64,000 bases of DNA from a bacterium (GCA_018223105.1 JAAEYY010000009.1:6827-70826); one strand, 5' to 3'; shown: positions 17,280 to 61,152, counted from the stretch's first letter. Made by a program: numbers and translations. The notes: a model not told the origin generated them from the letters alone.

Positions 17280-17452
17280 AATCAATAAGTTAATCAGGTA
17301 ACTCAGACAGCTTAGTCGTCTGAGTTATAGTCAAATCTAGAAACTGTTGACTAGAAAAACCAATAATATCAATTTTAATTTCAGCTGTTCACTAAATCTC
17401 GGAATTCAATTTGAATTCATTGTCATTTAAAGTATCATTGTTTTTACAGATC

Positions 17453-39687: not shown

Positions 39688-39695
39688 TATCTTTG
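39688..39695 (+). promoter_or_regulatory. Candidate -7 promoter box (TATCTTTG)
   Basis: An exact TAnnTTTG match 16 nt upstream of the ATG at 39711. It covers the TTG used by the ORF track, which argues for the ATG start. Confidence 0.4.
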
Positions 39696-39710
39696 ATTAA
39701 AACCACAGAA

Positions 39711-40061
39711 ATGGCCTACGACCTACATCTGGCAGAGCGCATTCGAAATATTTTCGCTCAGCAAAAACTTGAAACTGAAGAGAAGAAAATGATGGGTGGA
39801 TTATGTTATATGTTAAATGATAAGATGTGCGTTGGTGTGGTGAAAGACGAACTCATGGCTCGCATAAATCCGGAGCTGTATGAGAAAGCACTTACTAAAC
39901 CCGGAGCTTCTGAAATGAACTTTACCAGAAGAGCCATGAAAGGTTACGTTTTTGTAAACGGCGAAGGCACAGATAAAGAGGAAGACCTTGAATTTTGGGT
40001 AAACCTTGCGATTGAATTCAACCCACTAGCAAAATCAAGCAAGAAGAAAAAGAAGGCTTAG
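39711..40061 (+). CDS. TfoX N-terminal-domain family protein
   Basis: LAERIRNIF...EKKMMGGLCYMLNDKMCVGVVKDELMARI...GYVFV follows the TfoX_N pattern. It has a Lys-rich tail. Confidence 0.65.
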   Translation: MAYDLHLAERIRNIFAQQKLETEEKKMMGGLCYMLNDKMCVGVVKDELMARINPELYEKALTKPGASEMNFTRRAMKGYVFVNGEGTDKEEDLEFWVNLAIEFNPLAKSSKKKKKA

Positions 40062-41080: not shown

Positions 41081-41287
41081 ATGAAAACAAAAGAAATTGG
41101 TAAATTGATTAAACTGAGGAGAAAGTCACTAGGCTTAACTCAAGTTGAAGTTGCTTTTGCTTGTGGCCTCGGAGGACGATTCATTTCAGACCTAGAAAAT
41201 GGCAAAGAATCTTGCCAAGTGGGTAAAGTTCTGCTCGTTCTTGAGTCAATTGGTCTTGATATTAGAATTGATGAAAGAAAAGGTTAA
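41081..41287 (+). CDS. hipB: XRE-family HTH antitoxin (HipB-like)
   Basis: 68 aa. LRRKSLGLTQVEVAFACGLGGRFISDLENGK is an HTH_3 motif. It sits directly upstream of, and overlaps, the HipA kinase gene. Confidence 0.8.
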   Translation: MKTKEIGKLIKLRRKSLGLTQVEVAFACGLGGRFISDLENGKESCQVGKVLLVLESIGLDIRIDERKG

Positions 41288-42494
41288 AATATTCATTCAA
41301 GATAAGTACGCTGGCGATTTACAAGTTGACGAATACGGCACATTATGCTTTCAATACGATCAAGAATATCTTTCAAAAGGGGGTATGCCAATTTCAGAGT
41401 CAATGCCGTTAACCGCGGAAGAATATTATGGTGGAGTAGCACATGCCTTTTTTACAGGACTACTCCCAGAAGAAGAAATACTGTATTCAATCGCCAATGC
41501 AATTGGTACTTCAGCAAGTAATAACTTCAAGCTCTTGATTGAATTAGGAAAAGAGTGCATTGGTGCTATACAAGTTGGTGAGATTTTCGATGTAGAATCA
41601 AAAGACTATACTAAATTAAGCCTAACAGACTTTCAAGAAATAATAGCTAATCAAAATAACCTTTTACCTTTTCTATATAAGAACAAAAATGTACGACTTT
41701 CTATGGCAGGTGCTCAGTCAAAAGTGGGGCTCCTATATGAAGACGGGAACTACTTCCTCCCAAAGAATGGAGCACCAAGCAATGTAATTGTCAAACCTTC
41801 AAACCAGCGGTTTGATGATTTGATTTACAATGAATACGCGACTATGAAAATTGCCCATGGAGTGGGCATAGAAACGCCTCGATTGAAAATTATTTCAAGC
41901 ATAAGCCCCTGCGTTTACGTAATCCATCGCTATGACAGAATTACTATGAAAGGGGGAACAATAAAACGGGTTCATCAAGAGGATTTTTGTCAGGCCATAG
42001 GAATTCAAACAAGAAATAAATATGAAATAGACGGCGGGCCTGATTTTAAAACATGTATTGAGTTAATTAGAAATGCCTGTACTATTCCAGCTTTTGACCT
42101 TAAAAAATTCACCTCTCTTTTCCTTTTTAATTTCATTATTGGGAATAGAGATGCGCATGGCAAAAACTACTCCTTAATACGCGAAAAAAACAAGATTCAA
42201 CTTGCTCCTGCATATGACCTTGTCAGTACTTCATATTACGATACTTTAAACTCTGACATGTCAATGTCGATTAACGGAAAATTTGATGCCGGGGATGTTA
42301 CATTGAAGGATTTAAAAGACATGTCAATATCTGCGCAAATCAGCGCACCATTGCTCATTAAAGAATATCATAGAATGAAGGATGCTATCCTAAAACAGTC
42401 TAAAGATGTCCTCAAAGAAAAATGCTTTCCAGAGGTCTTCAAACAAAAGTTCGCTCGACATCTAGAAAGCACTATCAATAAACTTCCAGTTTAA
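41271..42494 (+). CDS. hipA: HipA-family serine/threonine kinase toxin
   Basis: SMAGAQSKVGL (HipA N-terminal/coupling motif) and IIGNRDAHGKNYSL...LAPAYDLVST (catalytic loop). ATG at 41271 is preferred over the in-frame ATG at 41199 that begins the tracked ORF, giving a 17-bp overlap with hipB. Confidence 0.88.
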   Translation: MKEKVKIFIQDKYAGDLQVDEYGTLCFQYDQEYLSKGGMPISESMPLTAEEYYGGVAHAFFTGLLPEEEILYSIANAIGTSASNNFKLLIELGKECIGAIQVGEIFDVESKDYTKLSLTDFQEIIANQNNLLPFLYKNKNVRLSMAGAQSKVGLLYEDGNYFLPKNGAPSNVIVKPSNQRFDDLIYNEYATMKIAHGVGIETPRLKIISSISPCVYVIHRYDRITMKGGTIKRVHQEDFCQAIGIQTRNKYEIDGGPDFKTCIELIRNACTIPAFDLKKFTSLFLFNFIIGNRDAHGKNYSLIREKNKIQLAPAYDLVSTSYYDTLNSDMSMSINGKFDAGDVTLKDLKDMSISAQISAPLLIKEYHRMKDAILKQSKDVLKEKCFPEVFKQKFARHLESTINKLPV

Positions 42495-44307: not shown

Positions 44308-44373
44308 AGTATTCTTTTTTACAAGCCATGCTTCAAAAAAAATACCAGTGAAGAAAACTGACGACTTGTCAGA

Positions 44374-46329
44374 TTAATCCGGCTTATATTGGATTTCTAA
44401 GGAATCACTTTCATTCCATACAGCGTCATAAGCCCTTATTCTGTAGTTTTGAGCAGATTTAGAAGATGCATGTCGGTCTAGGAAAGTAGTGCCATCTCCT
44501 TGAAGGTCCTTGATCAATTGCCAAGATCCATCTTCATTCTGCCGCTCAATAAGAAAACCCCTAAGATCCTTGTTGAATTCATATTCCCAAGAAATGTAAA
44601 TACCTCGAGCGCTATCTATTGCATGGCCATTTGTTGGCAAAAGCATCCCATTGGGTGAATTCAATGTAAACTCAAAGATGTTTGAAGGCTCGCTTTCATT
44701 CCCGTCGAGATCGACAGCCGTGATGTAAACCTGAACTTTTCCTTCAGCATCAATGGTGTCTCTATAAATATTTCTACTCCATTTTGTAATCTCTGGGCTC
44801 TCACTTTCCGGCGTTTTGATGTATACATTGTAATGACTAAAATCCTCCTCAAAATTTTGAGTCCATCTTAGTCGGATAACTTGGTCCTCAGAATTCGAAT
44901 AAGTAAAAATTGGTTTTTCAGGTGGAATATCATCAGGTCTTCTCAGTCTTATTTCCTCAGATGCTTCAGAGCGATTATAGGCTTGATCCACAGCGTAAAC
45001 AACATAGCGATATGCACGTTGGGAACGATTACCCAAGTCATCCTCAAACTCGGTTTTAAGTATCCTTTTAGCGCTTAATTGATGGTTGTTTGTTCCTGAA
45101 TCGCCTGTGTATCTCGACACATCGTAGCCCAAAATATCAGGTTCTGTATTTGCATCCCATCTCAATTTAACCTTTCCATTATCGTCCACTTCACCTGTTA
45201 AATTCATTGGAGGAGCCGGTGGAGTTTGATCCGGAATCATATAAGCCAATGTGTCGGAACAAAGCTCGAACTCACCGCTCTCTTTGTTGAGTAAGAAGTA
45301 ATAATACATTACACCCTCATCTACATTTCTATCGACAAACTTATCCTCAGTAAAATCGATTCTTTCAGAAATTGGATGTACCTGAGTAAAACCTGAATTC
45401 CTTTTAGTACTTCGATACACAGCAACGTTCAAGCTATCATTTCTTCTCTTTAAATAAATATCACCATATTTATCTTCAAGACTTAAAATAGAAGGACACT
45501 CCCTTGAAATTCTGGCTTTAGGGATTACTTTTTTAATAATACTTCTCTCCCCAACAATACCAAAGGCATTGAATGCCCTAATGAAATAATAATAGGTCTT
45601 CTCATTTTCAAGATACTGATCCAAATAAATAGCGCTATCGCTGCTTGCTGACATGTCAATTTTACCTACGGCATTAAGTAGCTCAAAAGGCCCGGAAAGA
45701 CTTGTAGATCGATACACTTTCATTCCCATAACATAATGATCTTGAACTGTGCTTTTGCTCCATTTTAAGATCGACTTTTGATCGCCAGGGTTCAAACTAT
45801 ATTCTGGAATTGCCAATTCTTGTTTGACCGGAATATTCATATCCGATTCTAGATATGAACTTGCAGTGCCGGAAACAACAGTCTTTATCCTAATCTTATA
45901 TTTTCCTGCTTGAACTTTGCTAGGAGTAGTAAATACGGTAGCCAATGCCTCAGCAAACTCAATATTCACCATGCTCAATGCATTACATAACTGGAAGGAT
46001 TGATTATTTGTAACCCAGTCATTGTACTTCGAAGCTGTAAAATCGGCGTTTAGATCTTCCACCCCCACCATACTTAAGAATAATTCATGTTTCGGTCCTA
46101 AAGTTTCAGATAGTTCAGAAGATGAGGTGACGCGCTCAACCCGTCCTAGTTCAGACCATTCCGAACCATTTTGCCACTCGACTACATACCCTTCAAGGTT
46201 CATGGCTGTTGACGCTTTCCACCTGAAAATGACATTCTCACCTGTATTGAATGCAATAATATCCTGAGCTAGTCCAAATGTTGAAATAAAACATGTCAGT
46301 ATCAGCAATATGGATTTCAAACTCTTCAT
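44374..46329 (-). CDS. Secreted multi-FN3-like repeat protein, third gene of the giant-protein operon
   Basis: Signal peptide ILLILTCFISTFGLAQ. About six modules show FN3-like signatures (GY.V.R, YYYF, YRYVVYAVDQAYNRSE, VYITAVDLDGNESEPS, YRIRAYDAVWNESD). ATGA overlap with the upstream gene. No T9SS sorting domain. Confidence 0.7.
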   Translation of the reverse strand: MKSLKSILLILTCFISTFGLAQDIIAFNTGENVIFRWKASTAMNLEGYVVEWQNGSEWSELGRVERVTSSSELSETLGPKHELFLSMVGVEDLNADFTASKYNDWVTNNQSFQLCNALSMVNIEFAEALATVFTTPSKVQAGKYKIRIKTVVSGTASSYLESDMNIPVKQELAIPEYSLNPGDQKSILKWSKSTVQDHYVMGMKVYRSTSLSGPFELLNAVGKIDMSASSDSAIYLDQYLENEKTYYYFIRAFNAFGIVGERSIIKKVIPKARISRECPSILSLEDKYGDIYLKRRNDSLNVAVYRSTKRNSGFTQVHPISERIDFTEDKFVDRNVDEGVMYYYFLLNKESGEFELCSDTLAYMIPDQTPPAPPMNLTGEVDDNGKVKLRWDANTEPDILGYDVSRYTGDSGTNNHQLSAKRILKTEFEDDLGNRSQRAYRYVVYAVDQAYNRSEASEEIRLRRPDDIPPEKPIFTYSNSEDQVIRLRWTQNFEEDFSHYNVYIKTPESESPEITKWSRNIYRDTIDAEGKVQVYITAVDLDGNESEPSNIFEFTLNSPNGMLLPTNGHAIDSARGIYISWEYEFNKDLRGFLIERQNEDGSWQLIKDLQGDGTTFLDRHASSKSAQNYRIRAYDAVWNESDSLEIQYKPD

Positions 46330-49300
46330 ATGTTGGCTGTATAGTCTATTTCAAATTCAGCATTGTCTTCATACCACAGTACTTTATAACTCATGCTTGA
46401 GGTGCCACTAATACTGATTTGGCTGGGAGTAATTTTAATTTCCGCATCACTAATGCTGACACTTCCCGACAACAAATCAAAACTGCGGTCAAATGCCTCT
46501 GCATTAACATCCCATGTTCCGGCAAGTGCAGGATTTGCAGTTCCGGTTTTAGTCTTATAAACGTATTTCAATTGCAATGAAGCTTCTAAGTCGAAAGAGG
46601 CATTTAAGCTCCCAAAGCCTAAAGTTAGGGACTTGTTTACATCGTAATACAGTCGACCCCGCATATCTACATCAGTTTCGGAAATTGTAAGACTTGCGTC
46701 TGCTTTAACCACTTGAATAAGAGCTGCTTCAATCTGCTCGGTCCACACAAGTCGTCCACTATTTGCAGGATAGGAGAAATTTATTCTTCCCCTTGCTAAG
46801 AATAAAGCGCCTTCCGCATTAGGCAGACCTATAAATGCTCCAATATAACCATCTACTTGAGCACTAGTAGACAGATTACGAATATTGATTTGTCCTTCAC
46901 CATAGATAGATTCTTCCTGGCTCAATGCCCATGCTTTACCATACAAACTGAAGTTTCCTGCAACATATGTCATTTCCATTCTACCTTCTAAAACTTCACC
47001 GGAAGGCGAATTACCAACTCCCACAATGGCTTTAATAGCAAAGCCGCCATCTCGCAATGGTGCTCCCTCTTGATTGCCTATCGGCGGACTGTAATTATAG
47101 CCCAATCCCCCTCCTAGTTCTAGGATAGAAAATCCGGTTGTACCAATAATGATTGGAAATCTTGCACTTAGTTCCGTGTACCAATACATATAGGATTCTT
47201 CAACAGAAATAGGTTGAGAGCCAACAATCACATAGCCTTCAAGTCCTTTATCAAACTTCTTGATATTGATCCCAAACTCTCCTTCAAAAACAGATTCGGC
47301 ATATGTGAATTCTCCTTTAAAACTTACAGGGCCTTTATCAAACTCAATCCCCAATTTATCAAAAGTGAGAGTCGGACCAGATTTTACGGTGGCAATGGCA
47401 TCTAGCGCAACTATACCTTTAAAATCTACCTTGCCATCAAATTTTAAACTGTAATCATTTCGATCTTTGAACTTAAAGCCCAACTCCCTCAGATTCATTG
47501 TAAAACCTGAACCAATTTCAATGTCCTTCTCTACAGTAATACTTTCGGTTTCTACCTCACCCTTGGAATTCATTTTAAATCCTGTTATGGCAATATCACC
47601 AAACTTCGTTGAATTAATAAGAGCACTTAGAACCAGTGTCCCCACTTCTTTTTCTCCATCATAATCAATTGCGGCTTCTCTTAAGACAAACGTTGTTCTA
47701 AACTGTGGAAGTTGAATAGGTTTATCTGTGCTTACACTGGCCGCAAACTTATTCGTTGCTGCAGTTATTTTCACTCCAACTTCTCCTTCCATTGGAGAGG
47801 GTAATGTTACATCTCCAGCAAATGTTCCTTCCTTCAACTCATTTCGTTCAAATTTAACTGCCACTTCTTTCAACTTCAGTTCATAACCGGAATATCCCAT
47901 AGCCAGTAATTGTCCTTTCATAGAAATGGCACCTCCAAAGCCTTCCTTTGCTATATAAAAATCCTCTACACTTAGAGTAGAAGCCTCATCTACTTCCGGT
48001 CTGTTGAATGATTTCGGTAGCTCAAGCTCTGCAGATTGTATCACTACTCCATAAAAAGCCTTATCATAAGGAATTACATCTTTCGATCGATCTGAGTGCA
48101 TATCGATAACTACGCTGGCACCTTTTTTCAGTTTAAAGTCTTTCACCTCAATCTCCGGCAGATTGGAAATCTTGCCTAAAAAGTTTCCTGCAGGATCGAT
48201 TTCTGCCTCAAATGATACCGGATCCGGAATTTTATCATGCTTAACTGTTCCTTTGATCACTGCACCAGAATTAGCAGTAATTCCAAAACTTTGAATCAGA
48301 AAATCAAAACTGCTAAATACCCTAAACTTCTTACCCTGTTCGCTTTTATAAGAAACTGTTCCTGCTGTGGCAAGAGGCATTTCATCTTCATTTAACTCAA
48401 CACCTTCAATGGTTAACTCTAATTTCTTCAAGACATTGAGTACTTCTAAGTCTGAACTTAAGCCTTCAATACTTAAAGTTCCTGTACCATTGATAGCTTC
48501 ACCAGGACTTGCATCATCCTTAAGCTCTATAACAAATAAATTATCAGAGCTCCCTATTTTAAACTGCTTAATTTTCTTCGTGCTCGCATTACCATCTACT
48601 TTATAATCACGAGCAATATCTTCATACTTTTCAGGGACTTTAGAGCTCACTGTAAAATCTTCTTCCTCCGGTGCATCCTTAATGGCGCAATAAGCGATCC
48701 CAAAGTCAGCTGTCTTTTCTTTCTCAGGCTCTGTTGAGACCGGAGATTCAGCCTCAAAACTGAGTTCTATTTGATTGGCAGGACTGTGATCCAAGTTCTG
48801 AGTTCCAAAAATCATCCATTGCTCGAGGTCCTCTCCTGTCAATTTAGCCACAGCAGCATCGATAGCTGCATTGCCTGATACAATCATTTTACGCGCTTCA
48901 TCCAAGGCTTCCTTACTCAGTTGATATGCCAAAATTTGAAATTGGTGTTTTAAAGGACTTTCTGCTTCTATTTTCTCTTCTTGAATCACCTTTCCTCCTC
49001 GCTTCCACTGCACTACAATTTCAAACTTCCCATAGCCCTTCCCATAGTGGAAAAAGGTCTCTTCTAAATACCCCCCTTCAATCGTTTGCTTATCTACCGA
49101 AGTGCTAGCTCCATCAAAGCCAAATTCCGTAGCATCACCATAAGTCTTGGTTACTTCAAGATGAATCGTTTCTCCTTTTAAACCACTGTGATCTCCTTGT
49201 ACAATTCTGGAAACTATTTTCGATTTCCCTTCCGGAGAACCTTCGATTGAATCAGTGGTTTCAATCATCACCCCTGCAGTTATTTCAAATTCTCCTTTCC

Positions 49301-52300
49301 CTTTGGCTTCTTCATCTTCATAAATATCATCTGCATCATATTTTACTTTTACTAATTGCAAATCCTTCTCTTTAGAAGGGTCTACTTCCTGCGGTTCCCA
49401 AAGGAAAAGGCCGTGAGTCTGGCTGCGAGTAGGGCCAATAATTCTACTACCCTCATACGTATACGTTCCTAAATCGATTTGTTCACCCAACAAACCTGAA
49501 GGTGAAACACAGAAATCTTCATCTTCTTCTTCTTCGCTTTCCGGCTCTTCGCCACCATCTTCTCCAGAATCTGTTTCAGTGCCTTCTTTTGGTCGTTCGC
49601 GAGTTCCGCCATCGTCAGTTCCACCGGTAGTTGGCCTTTCTGTAGTGCCTCCTTCATCCACCGGAACAGGATCTTCACCCATTCGATATGCTTTCTCTTC
49701 GAGACTTTCGCCTTGTGAAATGCATTGATAACTGATCTGATCTTTGTCGTGTTCTAAAGAAGTTGTTGCTATTACAACATCTTTTGCGAGCAAAGGAGCA
49801 TCATCTGGAATTACGGCCCATTTAGGGTAAAGCAATTTGCCATCTTGATATAGCATTGCAAGGGTTCGCGGTTCATTTCCAACCACAACTCCATTTACTA
49901 CTGGTGGATCTAGTTTATCGTTACTGATTACCGGATAGCACTTAGCAGAGTCGCGATCCAAACCTCCATTTCCACTTGCATCAGGACCCAACATTGAAGG
50001 TTTTCTTGCGATGTACTTTAAAGTAACAAGCTCAGTTTTTGCTGCATCCTTTTCACGCCATTCATCTATTTTATCGTCTCTAGCGGTAATCTGAATTTGA
50101 GTGTTGAAGGTAGTGTGTTCAAAGTAGAAAAAGATGAAGTCTTCCAGTTCCTTTTTTGCCTTTTTAAGCTCTTCCTTGGCCCTATCCAATTGCTTATTTA
50201 TCTTATCTTCTTCTTCTTTCTTTTCATTTAAATCAAACTGAATATCGGCTTTAGCTTTTTCCTTTTCTTTCTCAAGATTCTTTATTTTTTCACCAATTTC
50301 TTTGAGTTCTTTTTGAGCCTTTTGTAGGTCTTCATCCTTTTGCATCAGGCTATCAACATTAGCTCTGTCCGGATCGTCTTCCCCAATTTTAACTTCCTCT
50401 AATTTCTTTTGCTCTTTCTCGGCATCCAGTTTCAGGGCATTCTTTTGCTCTAGGTTTTGTTCTTTTTCATACAGTGTATTACGCCTTGCACCTTGTGCTA
50501 AATTCAAAGTAAAATGTCGCTCATCTTCCTCTGCAATTTGTTTATTCAGTGCTTCAATTCGCTCCTTAATTTTCCTCAAGTCAGCTGCCATTTCACCAAG
50601 AACACTGACATAAAATCGAATTTGCTCTCTTGTTTCTTCCAAATCACCTTCAAGAGAATTTAATGTTTTCCTTGATGCTGCAATTCCTGCAATATCATCT
50701 TTAGCAGATGCTGTTGAAAGTGCATTATTCGCTCTGGCGATTTCATTTACTAACCTTGTTTCGTCTTGTTTGTGCGTGCGAAGCTTGGCTGTATTATCGC
50801 TCATATTGTTTTCTCTCTGACGCTGGTCTTGAAGTTCATTATTTAAATCTTCTCGGAGCTTTTCCAGCTTCCGCCTTGAGTCTGTGATTAATGAATCGTT
50901 CTTTCGAACAAGCTCTTTATAATCCTCAAGGTCTTCCTCTGCCGTTTCAATATCTCCTTCTAGCTCCTTTAGCTCCTCTTCAAGGTCTGCCTTCCTTTTC
51001 TCTAACTCTTCACGCCGCTTCTGTTCCTCTTCCCTTGCTTCTTTTATTTTCTTTCCGGCTTCTAGCTTTTGTTTGGCTTCTGTATCTTTTGCCTCCCCTT
51101 CTTTCTTTTTAAGTTCCTCTACTTCAGAGTCTATACTCTTTATCTTCTCTAGGTTTTTCGCAATACTCACCATTTTCTTGCTCAGAAAATTCTGGTATCC
51201 TGCTTTTCTCTTTTCTGCTGCCTGAAGAGAGTCTTCTCGCTCCTTTACTTTAACAGAAAGCTCTTTGAACTTTGTTTCATCAGCAGTCCCTTTCATTAAT
51301 TCATCTACCGTTGGCGGGATATAATAAACATAAGGCCCCTCTGCTGATTTAGTGGCTGCTGTGGCTTCTTCTAACAGTCCAATTAATTTATTGCGTTCCT
51401 CTATTAATCGATCCAACTCTGCCTGGTCACTAATCAATTCATTTTTGAGTCTTTCTTTCAGCTGATCGAGTTCATCATTCTCATTCTCAAGTTCTCTGAT
51501 CTTATCACGTAAGCGTTCTATTTCACGATCGATAAGCTCAATGTCATCTTCAATAAATCCAATTTCCTTTACAAAAACTGTAGAATCTAAAAGTAACTCA
51601 GAGAGCTTTTTATACTTTTTCTCAAGTTCAATTTTTAGCTCGATTCTAATCAATTCCTTTTCCGAAAGTTCTGATGTATACTCAACTTTATTCTCCTTCG
51701 TCTTTGCTCTCCTCTTCTCTACTTTATTGTTGAATTTCGTTTGTACTCGCTCAATTTCATCTTCAAGTTCTTCTAATTGAGTTTTTGTGCTCGCTATATC
51801 TGACTCATATTCACTTATGATTCTATCATACTCAACTTGAGCTGCTTCATATGAAGCAATGGCAGCATCCAAGCTACTTTCTGCACTGCTTAGACCTTGT
51901 TCAGCACTTTCAAGTTGATCTTGTGCTGTAGCAATCTTTTCCTGAATATCAGTATCTATTATAATACCTCCTTTTATCATTGAATCTACAGATTCTTCAT
52001 AGCGCTGTGCCGATTCCAAGTAGATCTGCAAGGCTGCTTCAGCCTCATCATTTCGTCTTGCAGTTTTATCCAAATCATCATTAAACTGTTGCAAATCCGA
52101 TTTAAAACTTTCAACCTGAGAAGAACTTGGATTTGAAGTTCGGCTCAACGTTTCCGCTGCTTGATATAGAGCTAAATACTTTTCGTCGAAGTTCTTAACC
52201 GGAAAGTTTTCGTTGAAAGAACGAGCTTGCATGCTCCATTGATCCCTGCTTCTTCGGTAATAGATTAATTCAGGCTTTGAATAAAGCTCAGTATTTAAAC

Positions 52301-53570
52301 GAGTAATGGTTTGGCTATAGGTTTCTATTCCTTGTCGAGCAGCTTGATAACTCTGATTAAACTGCTTTACTTTACTCGCTTCAGATGTGATTTTTTCAGA
52401 CTGTGAAGCTAGTTCTTCCTTAAATTCTTCTTGTGACTGAAGCAGTTTATCTTTTAAGCTTTTACTACGTTCATTAAGCTGCCCCAGTTCATTTAACAAT
52501 GCTATCTCGGAGGCTGTGTGCTGATCTCCTAACAGCGCTAAAAGAGTATCAATCCTAGTTTGAACAAGTGTGATACTGTCTACTTTCACTTGAATCTTTA
52601 AGCGAACCGTTCTAATCTCTTCATGGAGCTTCTTCTGCTCAGTTTTTAGGGAGTCTTGAGTTCTTACATAAACGGTTTTTTGAGAGTCGAGCCGTTCTAT
52701 CTGTTTTTCGTACTCTTTGATTTTTTGTTTATTGACTTCCTTCTGCCGATCTATCCCTGAATCAACTTGAAATTGTTTATCTGCAATAGATTGCTGCAGA
52801 TCAGCAATTTGCCTTTCGAGATCTTCCAAAGCAGCATTTAAGCTATCGACCTTCTTTCGTTTAAATGGATCACCAAGAGAGCCCTTGCCGAGTAAAACCC
52901 ACTTAAAACTGCTCACCGCATCTTCGTAATATCGTACTTCGGTTCCTGCATCATCAGAGCAACCTTCACATTTAAACGTCACCTTATCATAATCCACACC
53001 TTCTGCTCGAATAGGTAGTGCTCGGGGATACATAAAAGTCTCTTCACTAGCAATACTGACACCCAGCGAAATTGTATTTTCAGGTTTCACTTCTTTCACA
53101 ATTTGCTGGCAGCCTGCAGGAGTATCACAAGGATTTTCTATTTCAATAAAAAGTCCCGAACCTGTTGATAGCTCAAAGGTTTGAGGTGGCGACCAAGTAC
53201 TCAACTCACTTCCCGAAGTACCACTTGTATTGCTCCTTACACTCCAAACGTAGGTTCCATCGAAAAGTTCCATTCTTTCGTTAATATAGAAAAATGGATC
53301 CATGCTGTACTCTACGTAGACAGGATGATTCACCCGAAATGCTGTTAGCGGGTCTTGACAAGGATAAACCGGGTAAAAGGCAATCTGATACGAAGCAAAC
53401 TCATCTGCAGCAGCAGTCCAGCTAAAAATAGTGCCTCTAAGCTGCCCATCACTACCTATTACTTCTCCGTCAAAAGGAGTCAAAATAATAGGTTGATTCT
53501 CAACCTGAGCAAAAGAATGTACTGACAAGCATATCAAACAGAAAATAATGATATGTTTCAAGCTCATCAT
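46326..53570 (-). CDS. 2414-aa secreted giant protein: Ig/FN3-like N-terminus, heptad-rich segment of about 900 aa, acidic linker, beta-rich C-terminal region of about 1000 aa; no recognisable family
   Basis: One uninterrupted ORF with signal peptide IIIFCLICLSVHSFAQ. Residues about 238-1143 are rich in E, K, L and Q with heptad-like spacing. The linker reads GGTTERPTTGGTDDGGTRERP...EEEEDEDF. The C-terminus has an alternating-hydrophobic strand pattern. ATGA overlaps occur at both ends. Confidence 0.8.
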   Translation of the reverse strand: MMSLKHIIIFCLICLSVHSFAQVENQPIILTPFDGEVIGSDGQLRGTIFSWTAAADEFASYQIAFYPVYPCQDPLTAFRVNHPVYVEYSMDPFFYINERMELFDGTYVWSVRSNTSGTSGSELSTWSPPQTFELSTGSGLFIEIENPCDTPAGCQQIVKEVKPENTISLGVSIASEETFMYPRALPIRAEGVDYDKVTFKCEGCSDDAGTEVRYYEDAVSSFKWVLLGKGSLGDPFKRKKVDSLNAALEDLERQIADLQQSIADKQFQVDSGIDRQKEVNKQKIKEYEKQIERLDSQKTVYVRTQDSLKTEQKKLHEEIRTVRLKIQVKVDSITLVQTRIDTLLALLGDQHTASEIALLNELGQLNERSKSLKDKLLQSQEEFKEELASQSEKITSEASKVKQFNQSYQAARQGIETYSQTITRLNTELYSKPELIYYRRSRDQWSMQARSFNENFPVKNFDEKYLALYQAAETLSRTSNPSSSQVESFKSDLQQFNDDLDKTARRNDEAEAALQIYLESAQRYEESVDSMIKGGIIIDTDIQEKIATAQDQLESAEQGLSSAESSLDAAIASYEAAQVEYDRIISEYESDIASTKTQLEELEDEIERVQTKFNNKVEKRRAKTKENKVEYTSELSEKELIRIELKIELEKKYKKLSELLLDSTVFVKEIGFIEDDIELIDREIERLRDKIRELENENDELDQLKERLKNELISDQAELDRLIEERNKLIGLLEEATAATKSAEGPYVYYIPPTVDELMKGTADETKFKELSVKVKEREDSLQAAEKRKAGYQNFLSKKMVSIAKNLEKIKSIDSEVEELKKKEGEAKDTEAKQKLEAGKKIKEAREEEQKRREELEKRKADLEEELKELEGDIETAEEDLEDYKELVRKNDSLITDSRRKLEKLREDLNNELQDQRQRENNMSDNTAKLRTHKQDETRLVNEIARANNALSTASAKDDIAGIAASRKTLNSLEGDLEETREQIRFYVSVLGEMAADLRKIKERIEALNKQIAEEDERHFTLNLAQGARRNTLYEKEQNLEQKNALKLDAEKEQKKLEEVKIGEDDPDRANVDSLMQKDEDLQKAQKELKEIGEKIKNLEKEKEKAKADIQFDLNEKKEEEDKINKQLDRAKEELKKAKKELEDFIFFYFEHTTFNTQIQITARDDKIDEWREKDAAKTELVTLKYIARKPSMLGPDASGNGGLDRDSAKCYPVISNDKLDPPVVNGVVVGNEPRTLAMLYQDGKLLYPKWAVIPDDAPLLAKDVVIATTSLEHDKDQISYQCISQGESLEEKAYRMGEDPVPVDEGGTTERPTTGGTDDGGTRERPKEGTETDSGEDGGEEPESEEEEDEDFCVSPSGLLGEQIDLGTYTYEGSRIIGPTRSQTHGLFLWEPQEVDPSKEKDLQLVKVKYDADDIYEDEEAKGKGEFEITAGVMIETTDSIEGSPEGKSKIVSRIVQGDHSGLKGETIHLEVTKTYGDATEFGFDGASTSVDKQTIEGGYLEETFFHYGKGYGKFEIVVQWKRGGKVIQEEKIEAESPLKHQFQILAYQLSKEALDEARKMIVSGNAAIDAAVAKLTGEDLEQWMIFGTQNLDHSPANQIELSFEAESPVSTEPEKEKTADFGIAYCAIKDAPEEEDFTVSSKVPEKYEDIARDYKVDGNASTKKIKQFKIGSSDNLFVIELKDDASPGEAINGTGTLSIEGLSSDLEVLNVLKKLELTIEGVELNEDEMPLATAGTVSYKSEQGKKFRVFSSFDFLIQSFGITANSGAVIKGTVKHDKIPDPVSFEAEIDPAGNFLGKISNLPEIEVKDFKLKKGASVVIDMHSDRSKDVIPYDKAFYGVVIQSAELELPKSFNRPEVDEASTLSVEDFYIAKEGFGGAISMKGQLLAMGYSGYELKLKEVAVKFERNELKEGTFAGDVTLPSPMEGEVGVKITAATNKFAASVSTDKPIQLPQFRTTFVLREAAIDYDGEKEVGTLVLSALINSTKFGDIAITGFKMNSKGEVETESITVEKDIEIGSGFTMNLRELGFKFKDRNDYSLKFDGKVDFKGIVALDAIATVKSGPTLTFDKLGIEFDKGPVSFKGEFTYAESVFEGEFGINIKKFDKGLEGYVIVGSQPISVEESYMYWYTELSARFPIIIGTTGFSILELGGGLGYNYSPPIGNQEGAPLRDGGFAIKAIVGVGNSPSGEVLEGRMEMTYVAGNFSLYGKAWALSQEESIYGEGQINIRNLSTSAQVDGYIGAFIGLPNAEGALFLARGRINFSYPANSGRLVWTEQIEAALIQVVKADASLTISETDVDMRGRLYYDVNKSLTLGFGSLNASFDLEASLQLKYVYKTKTGTANPALAGTWDVNAEAFDRSFDLLSGSVSISDAEIKITPSQISISGTSSMSYKVLWYEDNAEFEIDYTANI

Positions 53571-55288
53571 AATTTATATGTAACTGCGGCCCTTAGCAAG
53601 AACTCTCGAAACGCCGGAGCTTCCGGAATAATTCCATTTTTAATGTAATGTGTACTCAAGCCCAAACTACTGCTAATTTTAGAGTTTACTCTATATCTTG
53701 CACCACACTGAAATACCCTTCTCGAACCTGTTTTTGTTAGTTCATTCATGATATTGCTTTTTGCATTTGTGAAAGTAAATCTAATGTAGGGTGAGAGAGG
53801 AATTGATTCGAATCTTCTGGTAGCGTTTAAGGTGATGGTTGTATTGCGAAATAGTTTGGCTTGTGGTCTGGCGCTCGTAAATGAGTTTATCGAAACACCT
53901 CCGCTATATTGCTCATATACTGCTCGGTAAACTATGCCAAAATTGGTCGTACGAATTTGATTGACAGTGGGTAAAAAATCGCTTGAATTTTTATAGGTAC
54001 TCAGGCCAAAGATTCCTGTAATGGTATGCTTGATATCCATCCATTCCATAAGATACGTAGGCATAATGCGAATCACTTGATTGAATGTATTTATCCTTTG
54101 CCCTGTTGCAAGTTCACCATTAACAGCATTGAACGCATATGCTCCGTTTACAAAGAGGTGTTTATTGTATTTATAGGTTCCTGCGTACTTCAGATTTGGA
54201 ATGATTAATCCGGGTATTAGTGGGTCTGATATATTACTTCCCAAAAAGCCGAAATTAATATTGGATTGCAGTGCATTTTCAAAAAGGGAAAAACTTGGAT
54301 TCACTTCTACTCTGAGCAAATCAGACTGCATGAAAGGATATGCTAATGTTCTGAAATTCCTACTTTTCCATTCAAGTTTATTTTTCAGTTTAAATTTCTC
54401 AAATTGATGCTGACTTCTGCTTAACAAACCAAATCCGGCAAAGACATTGGTTGAAGGTATAAGTATCGACGGGACACTAAATTCTCTTAGCGTATCCGTG
54501 GCTAAGGTGTTTGGAGCATACGCTGTATTTGCTAGTTCCAGAAATAGTCGGTGTTTTTGATTGATCTTATAGTTCCCGTTTACTGCAAGTGCAGCACTGC
54601 GTTCAGGACGAGTAAACATTGGTACACTATCAAGTGAGTTCTTGTTATCTCCTACAAGAGATAGACTTACACTTATTAAAAGATCTTCGCTTAGATTACG
54701 ACCAAAACTCACTGCATTCAAACTTCTTCTGTATGTTGATCGAGTATTAAATGCATTGCCCACTACTAATGGTTGGATCATTCCACGTTGAGCTGCAATG
54801 CTCCATGCACCGGCATCATAGCCAAAACCTAAACCAAAAACTTTAATATCACCACTAGATAACTCGCTGTACGGTTGAATAAAATGGCCAATATGAAATT
54901 CAAAGTTCTTGTATTTTGGATTGAGATAAATTCTGTTTACCGGATGACTTAAATATTCTAAAATAGTTAAGGACTTTGGACCTTCTGCAGGAGTGTTAAC
55001 TCCAAATGCATTGACCTGAACCACAGGTCTTAGATAAAGTTGAATTGGAATATCAAAGCCTTTAGCGAGGTGTAGGTTATAAATACCCGAGAATTGAGGA
55101 AGATGTTTGGGTTGTCTTATATTCCCTGTTCCATTGTTAATGGATTGAGTATTGTAAAACTGGTAGTGAAAATTTGTAGTACCTGTTAGCCTTGATCCTC
55201 CTCCCAAGTTGAGTTGAGCAAGTGCTTCCCATTGTAATAAGACTAAGACAAGTAGGAAATATAATCTATGTTGTTTTCTCAACAACAA
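53567..55288 (-). CDS. Orphan predicted outer-membrane beta-barrel protein, first gene of the giant-protein operon
   Basis: Signal peptide (RLYFLLVLVLLQWEALAQ). 550 aa rich in Gly, Asn and aromatics, with alternating strands and no TM helices. The start appears to be TTG. The stop overlaps the giant gene's start (ATGA). Confidence 0.65.
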   Translation of the reverse strand: MLLRKQHRLYFLLVLVLLQWEALAQLNLGGGSRLTGTTNFHYQFYNTQSINNGTGNIRQPKHLPQFSGIYNLHLAKGFDIPIQLYLRPVVQVNAFGVNTPAEGPKSLTILEYLSHPVNRIYLNPKYKNFEFHIGHFIQPYSELSSGDIKVFGLGFGYDAGAWSIAAQRGMIQPLVVGNAFNTRSTYRRSLNAVSFGRNLSEDLLISVSLSLVGDNKNSLDSVPMFTRPERSAALAVNGNYKINQKHRLFLELANTAYAPNTLATDTLREFSVPSILIPSTNVFAGFGLLSRSQHQFEKFKLKNKLEWKSRNFRTLAYPFMQSDLLRVEVNPSFSLFENALQSNINFGFLGSNISDPLIPGLIIPNLKYAGTYKYNKHLFVNGAYAFNAVNGELATGQRINTFNQVIRIMPTYLMEWMDIKHTITGIFGLSTYKNSSDFLPTVNQIRTTNFGIVYRAVYEQYSGGVSINSFTSARPQAKLFRNTTITLNATRRFESIPLSPYIRFTFTNAKSNIMNELTKTGSRRVFQCGARYRVNSKISSSLGLSTHYIKNGIIPEAPAFREFLLRAAVTYKL

Positions 55289-55401: not shown

Positions 55402-56331
55402 ATGGAAAACAGTAATCAGGAATGGTACGAAAAGCTGAAGGAGAAGTATGATGCTATCAATCAGGATGTTGATGCGCATTTAGAGGGCCTTCTATGGAGT
55501 AAACCCATCACGTATTGGGATTATATTCAAACTGAAAGTTTATTAAGTCTACAAAAACAGAGAACTGTGTTTCCCGACGAGATGGTGTTTATCATGTACC
55601 ATCAGATCAATGAATTATTATTTAAAATGATTCTTTGGGAAATCGAGCAAATTGCACATAAAGAAGAATTAAGCCCTTCTTTCTTTGCTGCGCGATTAGG
55701 ACGAGTGAGTCGCTATTTTGACATGCTTTCTTCATCTTTTGACATCATGAAAGATGGCATGGAGGTAGAACAGTATCAGAAGTTTAGATTCACATTAACT
55801 CCTGCTTCCGGATTCCAGTCGGCTCAATATAGAATGATTGAATTCGCCTCTACAGAGCTAATCAATTTAATTGATGCTCGATTTAGAGACGGTATTAACA
55901 GAAAAACTCCTTATGAACATGCTTACAATCATCTGTATTGGCAAGCAGCAGGGAAAGATCATAAAACAGGCAAGAAATCGACCTTAATTACGCTGTTCGA
56001 GGAGAAGTACAAGGACGAGTTCCTTAAATTTATGGAGACCTATAACTCCGTAAATCTATGGACGAAGTATAAATCTTTGCCTGAGGATGTAAAAAATGAT
56101 GCTGAGCTAATTCAGGCTATGCGTCATTACGATTATACTGTAAATGTTTCTTGGGTAATGTCGCATTACCACGCTGCCGGCAAGTATCTAGAATCGAAAG
56201 GCCAAGTTGCAGAAGCCACCGGTGGTAGCGACTGGAAAAAATACATGCACCCCAAATACCAAAGAAGAATGTTCTTCCCTGATTTATGGACCGAAGAAGA
56301 ACGAGCAACTTGGGGCCATGGCTTAGAGTAA
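55402..56331 (+). CDS. kynA: Tryptophan 2,3-dioxygenase family protein
   Basis: ITYWDYIQTESLLSLQKQ...DEMVFIMYHQINELLFKMILWEI matches the TDO helix B/C signature. Confidence 0.85.
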   Translation: MENSNQEWYEKLKEKYDAINQDVDAHLEGLLWSKPITYWDYIQTESLLSLQKQRTVFPDEMVFIMYHQINELLFKMILWEIEQIAHKEELSPSFFAARLGRVSRYFDMLSSSFDIMKDGMEVEQYQKFRFTLTPASGFQSAQYRMIEFASTELINLIDARFRDGINRKTPYEHAYNHLYWQAAGKDHKTGKKSTLITLFEEKYKDEFLKFMETYNSVNLWTKYKSLPEDVKNDAELIQAMRHYDYTVNVSWVMSHYHAAGKYLESKGQVAEATGGSDWKKYMHPKYQRRMFFPDLWTEEERATWGHGLE

Positions 56332-57648
56332 CTCGTTGGCCAGATTTGCCAACTCAGATCGCTCTCCTTTTTCAAGGTTTACATGCGCAAATAATGGGTG
56401 ATTTTTCACCTTATCAATAAGGTATGAAAGGCCATTACTTTCCGCGTCAAGATATGGTGTATCTATCTGATTGATATCGCCGGTAAATACAATTTTGGTG
56501 TTTTCCCCTGCCCTGGTAACTATGGTTTTTATTTCATGAGGAGTTAGGTTTTGAGCCTCATCAATAATAAAGAACACATTAGCTAAAGTTCTACCTCTGA
56601 TATAAGCGAGCGGCGCAATTGCTATCTTTTCGGTTTCCACCATCTCGTTTATACGTTTAAATTCAGTATCCTTCTCGTTATACTGAGATTTAATAAACTT
56701 GAGATTATCCCAAATGGGTTGCATGTAAGGATCTATCTTCGACTTCACATCTCCCGGTAAATACCCAATATCCTTGTTACTAAGTGGAACAATTGGGCGT
56801 GTTACATAGATCTGTTGGAAACTACTTCGCTGCTCCAAAGCAGACGCTATAGCCAATAATGTCTTCCCGGTTCCTGCTACCCCTCTTAACGTCACTAATT
56901 TGATCTCCGGATTCATTAATGCATGTAAGGCAAATGCCTGTTCTGCATTTTTAGGCGTGATTTTATAAATCGTCTTCTTCTCAATTCGTTCAATATGATC
57001 AACGGTCTGATTATAATAAGCCAAGGCTGATTTCCTTCCATTTTTCATTACTAAGTAATGATTATATGGAAAGTTCTCTTTGGTTACCTCTTTGAGATCA
57101 ATTGTGTTCTTACTGAATAGTTTATCTATGGTTTCACTTACACATGAGAGCTCAGACATACCGGTGTAAAGCTGCTCTAGATCTTTAACTTTACCTGTTT
57201 CATAATCTTCACTTTGAAGGTTCAGTGATTTAGCTTTCACTCTCAAACAGATGTCTTTAGACACCAATACCACCTTTGTTCTGGGATGCTGTACTTGCAT
57301 CTCAAGAGCAGCGTTTATAATTTTATTATCGTTCTTTCTTTCATCGAAATTACTTCCTGCAGCACCAATATGATTTGCAGTACTCATTATCACTTTAAAC
57401 TTACCTTTTCCTTTACCCGGTAATTTTACCCATTCATTTAGTAAAGTTTCTTTTCCTAATTCATTCAGTAATCTAATAAAGCTCCTCGCTTCGAAATTGA
57501 TGGTGTCATTTCCTTTTTTGAAATTATCCAATTCCTCCAATACCTGGATTGGGATCGCCACATCATTATCTTCAAAATTGAGCAGTGAATTATGATCGTA
57601 TAGTATCACCGAAGTGTCTAGAATGAAAATCTTCTTTTTTGTTGCCAT
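56323..57648 (-). CDS. PIN-domain/PhoH-like ATPase (PhoH2/YlaK type)
   Basis: N-terminal PIN domain (FILDTSVILYD...QVLEELD). Walker A GVAGTGKTLLA. PhoH motifs FIIDEAQNLT and IVFTGD. Confidence 0.9.
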   Translation of the reverse strand: MATKKKIFILDTSVILYDHNSLLNFEDNDVAIPIQVLEELDNFKKGNDTINFEARSFIRLLNELGKETLLNEWVKLPGKGKGKFKVIMSTANHIGAAGSNFDERKNDNKIINAALEMQVQHPRTKVVLVSKDICLRVKAKSLNLQSEDYETGKVKDLEQLYTGMSELSCVSETIDKLFSKNTIDLKEVTKENFPYNHYLVMKNGRKSALAYYNQTVDHIERIEKKTIYKITPKNAEQAFALHALMNPEIKLVTLRGVAGTGKTLLAIASALEQRSSFQQIYVTRPIVPLSNKDIGYLPGDVKSKIDPYMQPIWDNLKFIKSQYNEKDTEFKRINEMVETEKIAIAPLAYIRGRTLANVFFIIDEAQNLTPHEIKTIVTRAGENTKIVFTGDINQIDTPYLDAESNGLSYLIDKVKNHPLFAHVNLEKGERSELANLANELL

Positions 57649-57709
57649 CTTACCTGATCAGGCAATTTAGCAGCTAATAGATGCCTTTCCAAACATGTTA
57701 CTTCAATGT

Positions 57710-58828
57710 CTATAACTCCCACAACACAGTCCTTTCCACTACATAATCATGCTCATTCCTAAAGACAATTAACACAGATTTAAGACCCCAATAACGAGGA
57801 GCTAACTCGTAATAAGTATCAACAATTTGAGTATGAAGTAATTGGCCATTTAAACTATAAACCCATACTTCCCCTCTCATTCTCGAATCTATTTTCCATT
57901 TATCTTTTGTTTTATAAATCCAAGGCTTGCCCGGACTATAAACAAGCCAAGTGCTGTATTCAAACTGACCGTCATAGTCTACTTGCTTCAAGCGATAGTA
58001 CATTCTTGATTTCGGGCTTGGAATTGACACCTTGTATTCTACCATAGATTGGGTTGTACCTGCACCCTCGATTTGCTTAATGGTATTGAATGTTATTGCG
58101 TCCGAACTCTCCTGCAATGCAAAATGAGAATTATTATATTCAGAAGCAGTTTGCCACTGAATTTCAAGCCATTGCCCTTCCAGATTAATCTCAAATGAGA
58201 TCAGTTGTACCGGTAAATTACAAGCACCACTGATAGCAAAACTTCCATTAAACACCTCAGGATTACTGTTATTCCCACTATAATTTGAACTATCGAATAA
58301 GGCTGCTTTTAGCTGTGATAAAGTTCCTGAGCTTAGTCCAATATACTTTAGATTGTCTACTTCAAATAATGCAGTAGCATTTGAGCCTTGTGTTAGTTGA
58401 TTGGGCAAAGCCGAAGTACTAGTTGAACTTGCTGTTGCTTGCCAAACAGCTGCATCTTCAATGTTTATTCCTGTAATAAAGTTGGGTTGAGTATCTGCTC
58501 CTTGAAATGCGAAAATCTGATCGCCACTTGCAGAAAAAGCCATTCCCCAGACAGAATCAACATAGACTACCTCCCCACAGCCTAAGCTGCTTGGCGCAAC
58601 CCAGTCCATGGTTCCTTCTCCACTTCTAAAGTAACCAGCACTATCCCAACCGCGATCTGTAAAACTAATTTGAGTACCACTGTCTATTGTAGTAAGAAGA
58701 ACAAAGGCGAAATTATCCGGATTGTCTGCATTGAATTCAACTATGGCTATATCACCGGCTGAAAGAGTGGTTTGTGCTTTCATGAGCACTGAACAGCACA
58801 AAATCAAGAATAAATAAAAAGGTCTCAT
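57710..58828 (-). CDS. Secreted protein with an FN3-like WQTASE..YYRLKQVDYDG module
   Basis: Signal peptide FYLFLILCCSVLMKAQ. N-terminal GDIAIVEFNADNPDNFAFVLL...ISFTDRGW. The central module is paralogous to the one at 19426-19722. Confidence 0.65.
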   Translation of the reverse strand: MRPFYLFLILCCSVLMKAQTTLSAGDIAIVEFNADNPDNFAFVLLTTIDSGTQISFTDRGWDSAGYFRSGEGTMDWVAPSSLGCGEVVYVDSVWGMAFSASGDQIFAFQGADTQPNFITGINIEDAAVWQATASSTSTSALPNQLTQGSNATALFEVDNLKYIGLSSGTLSQLKAALFDSSNYSGNNSNPEVFNGSFAISGACNLPVQLISFEINLEGQWLEIQWQTASEYNNSHFALQESSDAITFNTIKQIEGAGTTQSMVEYKVSIPSPKSRMYYRLKQVDYDGQFEYSTWLVYSPGKPWIYKTKDKWKIDSRMRGEVWVYSLNGQLLHTQIVDTYYELAPRYWGLKSVLIVFRNEHDYVVERTVLWEL

Positions 58829-58922
58829 AATCTGAAATTTCAGGCAAGCTAAAATTCCAGAATGTTAATTTAAAAATCTCAGCCCCTTAAGATTCCAAAC
58901 GTGTTAAAAGACCTTATTAACG

Positions 58923-61076: not shown

Positions 61077-61152
61077 AATTTAGGTTTGATATAAGTCGGC
61101 GAAGGGAAAGTTCGAATCTTACGTTATTGTTAATTTATAGTTATGTAAATAA

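Follow-up and report, generated by a model that had tools for sequence, protein, structure and literature searches.

A candidate undescribed envelope module of uncultured Bacteroidota: an outer-membrane barrel, a giant rod-bearing protein and an FN3 array encoded side by side

We analysed a 64,000-nt stretch of a bacterial genome assembly (GCA_018223105.1, JAAEYY010000009.1:6827-70826; hereafter called the window), in which three consecutive genes on the minus strand encode an outer-membrane beta-barrel (gene 1), a giant modular protein (gene 2) and a chain of fibronectin type III (FN3) modules (gene 3). The same genes are found together in other genomes, and we are highly confident that they form a genuine, so far undescribed module whose parts are linked in function. 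Judging from the sequences, it is a conserved envelope module that exists mainly in uncultured Bacteroidota.

Three overlapping genes on the minus strand

Gene 1 occupies 53567-55288 (573 aa, TTG start) and encodes the outer-membrane beta-barrel; a database copy (P0001) has 571 aa and uses an alternative start two codons downstream, at 55282. Gene 2 (46326-53570; 2414 aa, ATG start) encodes a putatively Sec-exported giant modular protein, and gene 3 (44374-46329; 651 aa, ATG start) a putatively Sec-exported array of about six FN3 modules. A preliminary description of the window had reported these three minus-strand open reading frames (ORFs) and two ATGA overlaps between them. The coordinates were confirmed and both junctions were read directly: the stop of gene 1 overlaps the start of gene 2 at 53567-53570 (minus strand; TTATGATGAGC), and the stop of gene 2 overlaps the start of gene 3 at 46326-46329 (minus strand; ATATGAAGAGT). 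The arrangement is that of one translationally coupled operon, as read from the DNA. All three proteins have signal-peptide-like N-termini, and from these and the conserved cysteines of the giant we infer that the three proteins lie outside the cytoplasm.

A terminator-like hairpin (CTGACAAGTCGTCAG followed by a T-run; 44348-44372, minus strand) lies immediately 3' of the gene 3 stop, which is a consensus match only, with as many such hairpins in the region as expected by chance. A scan for sigma-70-type promoters gave sites not above chance expectation, and the upstream region of gene 1 contains no exact Bacteroidetes -7 motif. The operon is flanked by unrelated housekeeping genes, htpG downstream and phoH2 with a divergent tryptophan 2,3-dioxygenase gene upstream.

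Conservation and variation of the trio

A word-index search for homologues returned 8 barrels and 2-3 giant fragments. When genomes were scanned with one peptide motif, the barrel was detected in 6 of 185,579 species representatives, a lower bound because a single motif was used, and all 6 species are uncultured Bacteroidota-type metagenome-assembled genomes (MAGs). The exhaustive hidden Markov model (HMM) search with the C-terminal profile of the giant gave 154 matches, 69 of them at E<=1e-30, and the idea that the system is extremely rare was dropped on this result. Among the matches are about 45 full-length giants of one common architecture (2231-2906 aa), each standing for one 50%-identity cluster; the named ones are 'hypothetical' proteins from Bacteroidota/Crocinitomicaceae MAGs and from one MAG labelled Acidobacteria. 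Several of the MAGs that carry the system derive from cultures of cyanobacteria. Two scans of metagenome contigs found nothing.

Beyond this genome, the trio was found in loci L001, L005, L010, L013, L015, L016 and L017. The order barrel, giant, FN3 occurs in L001 and L010 with the same flanks as in the window, in L005 on a contig that stops at the operon and leaves the flanks unseen, and in L013 with other flanks (barrel hhalign E 4e-31). The barrel of L015 (hhalign E 2e-38) is followed by a stand-alone protein related to the N-terminal module of the giant, then by the giant itself and an FN3-sized protein. In L016 and L017 the genes overlap again and run giant, FN3, barrel (barrel hhalign E 2e-23 and 2e-15, respectively). 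The barrel-first order suggested earlier is thus no family trait, but gene 3 orthologues are collinear across loci and follow the giant in every locus examined. L011 and L012 contain the pair of gene 2 and gene 3 with other flanks, and the barrel is unseen there because the upstream region is fragmented or cut by the contig end. L014 contains a giant and an FN3-like protein.

It is barely conceivable that these genes are neighbours by chance or were mis-called, with no functional link between them. The long ORFs are conserved as proteins in dozens of lineages, the overlaps of stop and start codons persist, and neither rearrangement nor a change of flanks has broken up the trio; the comparative data effectively refute such an explanation. 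A trio that stays together through rearrangement and in changing neighbourhoods is therefore a functional module.

A reduced variant exists at L002:4963-10969 and L009:4424-9734, comprising a repeat-rich exported protein (993 aa in L002 and 761 aa in L009), another exported protein of 434 aa and a barrel that is distantly related (23% identity). The 434-aa protein is homologous to domain A, the first part of the N-terminal module of the giant (BLASTP 5e-8; hhalign 94%, E 1.4e-7). The extra stand-alone protein of L015 (L015:3457-5997; 846 aa), located between barrel and giant, carries domains 0 and A, followed by about 550 C-terminal aa without an assigned domain, and resembles both the 434-aa protein of L002 and domain A of the giant. 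Taking L002/L009 and L015 together, N-module proteins adjoin the barrel in three different architectures.

Some further features of these loci were observed. The reduced variant is adjoined by a divergent LytTR response regulator and a Reg_prop histidine kinase, and the same pair is found near the trio in L013. In L014 (the MAG labelled Acidobacteria) a 453-aa exported protein (L014:4583-5944) without homology to the barrel precedes the giant. In the JGI contig L011 (380-9377), the gene 2 homologue is split into called genes of 470, 76, 48, 187, 609, 267, 96 and 1100 aa, which probably results from frameshifts by assembly errors, or else the copy is decaying.

The barrel protein

Gene 1 has a signal peptide of about 25 residues (aa 1-25), and the mature protein has an isoelectric point (pI) of about 10. 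Its AlphaFold2 model, computed from an 8-sequence alignment (predicted local distance difference test, pLDDT, 79.2; predicted template modelling score, pTM, 0.67), is all beta over residues 24-570, with about 24-26 strands in which every second connection is a short turn. The model contains no plug and no N-terminal periplasmic domain, as the barrel begins directly after the signal peptide at residue 24, and therefore no POTRA; the preliminary description had likewise seen a probable outer-membrane barrel and spotted no POTRA-like region by eye.

Neither the single sequence of gene 1 nor an 11-member family profile has a Pfam, NCBIfam or PDB sequence match, and gene 1 is a barrel of a new sequence family. 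By structure, the top Foldseek match of the model in PDB is MtrB (6r2q_B, E 3.6e-10, TM 0.50/0.45), followed by generic large barrels such as TonB-dependent receptors, ushers and porins, with LptD ranking 42nd. MtrB has about 26 strands and sheaths a partner protein encoded in the same operon. Like gene 1, MtrB of the MtrCAB complex (PDB 6r2q chain B) is a large barrel without a plug, a likeness of fold only, which other large barrels show too. However, the partners of gene 1 are not multihaem cytochromes: CXXCH is absent from gene 2 and gene 3, and the sole CxxC of gene 2 is CEGCS. Pfam and PDB sequence searches with gene 1 gave no match to the MtrB_PioB family either. For the chaperone-usher pathway there is no usher or PapD match in Pfam and the gene 1 model has no extra domains, and for LptD the gene 1 family has no Pfam match and the model lacks an N-terminal domain.

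The best-conserved motifs of the gene 1 family are VNTPAEGPKSL...HPxNR, SxLSxGDIKVFG and RTLAYPFMQSD, which in the model are located in long loops after odd-numbered strands. By the usual topology of barrels, these long conserved loops would be extracellular or fold into the lumen. Most of the family (9 of 11 members) are strongly basic barrels, with pI 9.8-10.6 and net charge from +20 to +43, and the giants are mostly acidic (mean pI 5.2; net charge of gene 2 about -145), so that barrel and giant may be complementary in charge.

Architecture of the giant protein

Gene 2 can be divided into several parts, all given here with their minus-strand coordinates. The signal peptide (aa 1-22; 53505-53570) looks like that of a signal peptidase I substrate without a lipobox by sequence inspection and regular-expression search, and the N-terminus with its cleavage point reads MMSLKHIIIFCLICLSVHSFA/QVEN. 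The following N-terminal module (aa 23-237; 52860-53504), of beta type, comprises, by alignment, domain A (aa 26-137) and domain B (aa 138-237), the latter with invariant Cys148, 154, 201 and 204 in the family alignment. Next comes a helical, coiled-coil-like rod (aa 238-1185; 50016-52859), identified from composition, heptad-like scoring and periodicity. Each of four rod segments has a hydrophobic periodicity of 3.52-3.54 residues, the value that coiled-coil-like packing should give.

The rod contains a near-invariant break at aa 742-756 (51303-51347) with the consensus A.G..VYY.PPPLE, where gene 2 reads AEGPYVYYIPPTVDE. In the family alignment, P752 and P753 are conserved at 100%, and G745, Y749 and Y750 at 93-96%. 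The rod arms on either side of this PPP site have about 510 and 430 residues. A CxxxxxC pair is also found inside the rod in about 90% of the family, at the columns of gene 2 aa 504 and 510 (window about 52041-52061), and both cysteines are lost in the clade of the window.

Behind the rod lies a globular knob (aa 1186-1300; 49671-50015) with near-invariant Cys1211 and Cys1283 in the family alignment, which would make it a disulfide-type knob. An acidic linker (aa 1301-1360; 49491-49670; pI 4.05), probably disordered, ends at the invariant Cys1354 and leads to the beta-rich C-terminal region (aa 1361-2414; 46329-49490), which is among the best-conserved parts and the most constant in length. 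Among close orthologues, identity is 44-68% per 100-aa block in the C-terminal region and merely 34-54% in the rod.

Across 45 representatives, the rod measures 967±19 aa (coefficient of variation, CV, 1.9%) and the C-terminal region 1053±15 aa (CV 1.4%), but the N-terminal region ranges twelve-fold, from 60 to 723 aa (CV 38%). As the length of the rod is constant while its identity is low, selection therefore acts on length and not on sequence. A rod whose length stays within 2% across lineages that are less than 50% identical is probably a molecular ruler, and cases as clean as this are rare. With about 0.15 nm for each residue, the calculated (not measured) length of the rod is about 140 nm when extended and about 70 nm if it is folded back at the PPP break. 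A simple periplasm-spanning strut, one form that the preliminary description had given to the structure, fits poorly with a rod of possibly 70-140 nm.

In gene 2, regular expressions detected no Walker A, no NPNL/NPNG and no lipobox, and Pfam and NCBIfam scans gave coiled-coil noise only. Searched as four segments, gene 2 has no Pfam family at E<=10, and 10 diverse family members have none at E<=1. The C-terminal region (as a 10-member profile) and the N-module have no sequence match in PDB, the N-module shows no significant similarity to the FN3 modules of gene 3, and BLAST self-comparison found no internal repeats in the gene 2 C-terminus or in gene 3. There is also no plasmid match for gene 2 itself.

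Comparison with two-partner secretion and TamA/TamB

A dedicated barrel beside a giant Sec-exported protein, with similar sizes, is also the layout of two-partner secretion (FhaC/FHA, CdiB/CdiA), and TamA/TamB (TamL/TamB in Bacteroidota) and AsmA-like systems likewise pair a barrel with a beta-rich envelope protein of very large size. A diverged module of one of these types would explain the gene sizes and the local barrel-then-giant order, and nothing else; in view of what follows, we consider it highly improbable. Omp85-type barrels have 16 strands and POTRA, whereas the gene 1 model has about 24-26 strands and no POTRA, and no Bac_surface_Ag, ShlB-type or POTRA profile matches gene 1 or the 11 family members (Pfam, E<=1). 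On the side of the giant, aa 1-240 of gene 2 have no Pfam match to the TPS domain of TpsA (Haemagg_act) at E<=10, and TamB (DUF490) and AsmA profiles match neither the gene 2 segments (E<=10) nor the 10 diverse members (E<=1). The cargo would be a coiled coil with a beta head, not a beta-helix, and it has no NPNL/NPNG. The cleavable signal peptide of gene 2 and its helical rod of about 950 aa argue against the layout of TamB, in which an inner-membrane anchor is followed by a continuous beta-taco groove; the AlphaFold2 model of the gene 2 C-terminal region is unusable for this comparison (pLDDT 31). Moreover, the gene order of the trio is variable.

The resemblance to TpsB/TpsA and TamA/TamB in size and gene order that had been pointed out earlier is coincidental; in the distant members L016 and L017 the barrel gene is last. 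The placement of gene 1 outside Omp85, TamA and TpsB, and of gene 2 outside TamB, AsmA and TpsA, is borne out by these searches. Since no such family was found for either protein and the trio is syntenic beyond this genome, the proposal of an undescribed envelope system stands.

Absence of T9SS sorting domains and the site of the giant

Large surface proteins of Bacteroidota normally use the C-terminal domains of the type IX secretion system (T9SS) or lipoprotein export. Three other large secreted proteins of the window, which serve as positive controls for detection, do carry T9SS C-terminal domains: Por_Secre_tail in those at 10128-17285 (minus strand) and 34919-37357, and CHU_C in that at 4197-6503. 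However, neither Por_Secre_tail nor CHU_C nor another C-terminal domain of this kind matches gene 2, gene 3 or the 10 diverse family members. This contrast between the trio and its neighbours was correctly seen in the preliminary description, and its account of gene 2 (signal peptide present; TPS domain, T9SS domain, Walker A and lipobox absent) agrees with both the regular-expression and the profile scans.

The genes for giant adhesins of Bacteroidota adjoin that of a partner barrel dedicated to them, and the GldK track is coupled to SprF (PMC12635249). SprB and SprF thus offer, in the same phylum, a giant cell-surface protein beside a dedicated barrel (PMC12635249), and the organism of the window has T9SS cargo; gene 1 and gene 2 could accordingly be a highly diverged T9SS-linked adhesin with a PorP/SprF-type barrel. 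We judge this very improbable, because a T9SS domain is missing as described above and none of the 11 barrels matches the PorP_SprF profile at E<=1. PorP and SprF are small barrels of about 300-350 aa, and gene 1 (about 570 aa, about 26 strands) is far larger. The candidate role of gene 2 as a missing gliding track was dropped, as the track is now assigned to GldK/N (PMC12635249).

The most serious alternative, though still rather unlikely in our estimation, is that the giant stays in the periplasm and is tethered to the outer membrane via the barrel, where it would act as a spacer, ruler or skeleton-like scaffold. The rod would run along the membrane or be folded into a shorter bundle, and the FN3 chain would be a strut. 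Gene 2 has a Sec signal peptide and neither a T9SS domain nor a lipobox, in a window where secreted proteins do carry T9SS domains. The strict conservation of rod length suits a ruler, and a shorter multi-helix bundle could arise by folding at the conserved breaks, namely P351, the CxxxxxC columns and the PPP site. However, simple anchoring hardly accounts for a wide plug-free barrel, and the length of a 967-aa rod exceeds the width of the periplasm several times over. The number of N-terminal modules also varies greatly, which is more typical of exposed regions. Even a periplasmic giant would add something new to envelope biology, namely a conserved envelope coiled-coil protein of 2400 residues that has a barrel of its own.

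The DUF6603-like head

In the profile-profile alignment (hhalign) of the giant C-terminal profile (A7) with a 22-protein profile (A8), the probability is 100% (E 2.4e-41, 562 columns), and the aligned part of gene 2 is about aa 1803-2393 (46392-48164, minus strand). The A8-type proteins were weaker matches of the giant HMM search; they are 1500-2800 aa long and match profile positions of about 460-800 with regions close to their own N-termini. Pfam PF20248 (DUF6603) is matched by 12 of the 22 A8 members (best E 4.9e-15), while gene 2 and 10 close and distant giants have no direct Pfam match above the gathering score for PF20248. By profile comparison, the last 600 residues or so of gene 2 are thus remotely homologous to the uncharacterised DUF6603 superfamily. 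The view that the giant has no known relatives at all has to be corrected for this C-terminal part. Among the papers searched, none mentions DUF6603 and none describes a comparable system.

A signal peptide is absent in 21 of the 22 DUF6603-type proteins examined, and a rod comparable to that of gene 2 was noted in none of the 22. The lack of signal peptides argues against the head being a transmembrane barrel inserted by the barrel assembly machinery (BAM), and an autotransporter-like C-terminal transmembrane barrel in gene 2 was rejected for this reason. The DUF6603-type proteins (P0089-P0158; L018, L019, L020) share an N-terminal F.PL...WP motif. They have no phage match, and the gene contexts in L018 and L019 are uninformative. 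By tblastn, relatives annotated as 'DUF6603 domain-containing protein' in RefSeq were found on Mycetohabitans megaplasmids beside a phospholipase D-like gene. For example, a megaplasmid of Mycetohabitans endofungorum encodes a DUF6603-type protein of 2496 aa behind two other genes, one hypothetical (1322 aa) and one phospholipase D-like.

From these relatives one could suppose that the head is membrane-active or toxic, the barrel exporting a DUF6603-like effector and the rod presenting it to other cells. Proteins with DUF6603 are very large, have no signal peptide in most cases and often carry lectin-like (3-keto-disaccharide-hydrolase-like, lectin-fold), TSP_C, LTD or Big_5 domains; the Mycetohabitans gene context just mentioned would suit an effector, and a barrel with a giant follows the logic of CdiB/CdiA. 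We nevertheless regard toxin delivery as improbable. The C-terminal region is well conserved and has the most constant length, and so is not a polymorphic tip. No small immunity-like gene lies downstream in any locus examined, and the family-profile scans detected no toxin or enzyme domain.

The FN3 array

Single-sequence scans of gene 3 gave weak FN3-type matches in Pfam and NCBIfam, and the family profile (A10) matches tandem FN3 arrays in PDB, namely titin (E 6.5e-31), RPTP-F (E 3e-16) and fibronectin. Gene 3 has neither a T9SS C-terminal domain nor a lipobox, and the earlier assignment as a signal-peptide FN3 array without T9SS domain is upheld. The chain is estimated at about 20-25 nm if extended. 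Tandem FN3 arrays are also known from titin, MyBP-C and linkers of bacterial glycosidases, but gene 3 differs from such proteins in having no enzymatic, anchoring or T9SS domain. In muscle, FN3 arrays bind along coiled-coil rods. This thick-filament analogy is suggestive for gene 3 and is not evidence of function.

A possible mechanism

Among the readings considered, we favour one in which the giant is attached by an N-terminal module to the barrel, and perhaps also exported by it, so that a fibre of fixed length is formed, and we assign it a probability of roughly 0.4. The barrel would be the dedicated outer-membrane partner of the giant, whose N-terminal module would dock in or under the wide barrel lumen, as in MtrB-MtrA, LptD-LptE or the LapA N-terminus at LapE. 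The barrel may also be the conduit that takes the rest of the giant chain to the cell surface. The rod would then set a constant distance between the membrane and the DUF6603-like head, about 70 nm when folded and up to about 140 nm when extended, and the FN3 chain would bind along the giant structure or bridge it. Attachment or surface architecture would be the likely role of such a module.

The link between barrel and N-module draws on the N-module proteins beside the barrel in the reduced loci and in L015, and the fixed geometry on the constant rod length, the PPP break and the periodicity. The comparison with LapA and LapE is an analogy of mechanism only, in which a folded N-terminal module at an outer-membrane channel tethers a giant adhesin. 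LapA is a substrate of the type I secretion system (T1SS) with RTX repeats, and LapE is TolC-like; unlike them, the trio has neither T1SS/RTX nor TolC-like features.

Several points weigh against anchoring and export by the barrel. We infer the location of the giant, its interaction and its export from sequence. A protein that has only a Sec signal, with neither a T9SS domain nor a lipoprotein route, is periplasmic by default, and we see neither an energy source nor a chaperone that could serve passage across the outer membrane. The co-occurrence of N-module and barrel comprises three locus types with moderate scores (hhalign 94%), and at the distant locus L014 a barrel homologue was undetected within the 6 kb shown on each side of the giant. 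The basic charge of the barrel is not universal (pI 4.8 in L015 and 6.3 in L016). Most DUF6603 proteins have no signal peptide, so the domain gives no hint of a surface role, and the AlphaFold2 model of gene 2 aa 1215-2414, based on a 3-sequence alignment, is unusable (pLDDT 31).

A bolder form of the favoured mechanism is that the trio gives Bacteroidota an undescribed pathway for export and anchoring, in effect a new type of secretion system, in which a POTRA-less 26-strand barrel translocates and then retains the giant, giving a ruler-length fibre with a DUF6603-like tip or base and FN3 decoration. This stronger proposal is doubtful at present. If export and anchoring by the trio were true, Bacteroidota could bring a giant protein to the outer membrane or across it without T9SS, lipoprotein export, Omp85-type transporters or ushers, the routes that account for essentially all known surface display in this phylum. 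As a new member, the barrel would join the few known outer-membrane proteins of the wide sheath type, mainly MtrB and LptD. The uncharacterised DUF6603 superfamily is now linked to a defined operon context, and such a pathway would provide the first functional handle on it.

Other genes in the window

A phosphate-related cluster lies upstream of the operon at 56323-62304 (minus strand), a position conserved in L001 and L010. Its genes encode PhoH2 (PIN + PhoH), a fusion of Na/Pi cotransporter and PhoU, phosphate-selective porin O/P and a 372-aa protein without family match. On the other side of the operon, at 41199-42494 (plus strand), there is a gene for a HipA-family toxin kinase with HipA_C and Couple_hipA domains; the small ORF upstream of it (39693-40061, plus strand) might encode its partner. 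The T9SS-bearing protein at 10128-17285 is a second giant (2385 aa), unrelated to gene 2, which contains CARDB repeats, DUF7619 and DUF4832 in addition to its Por_Secre_tail.

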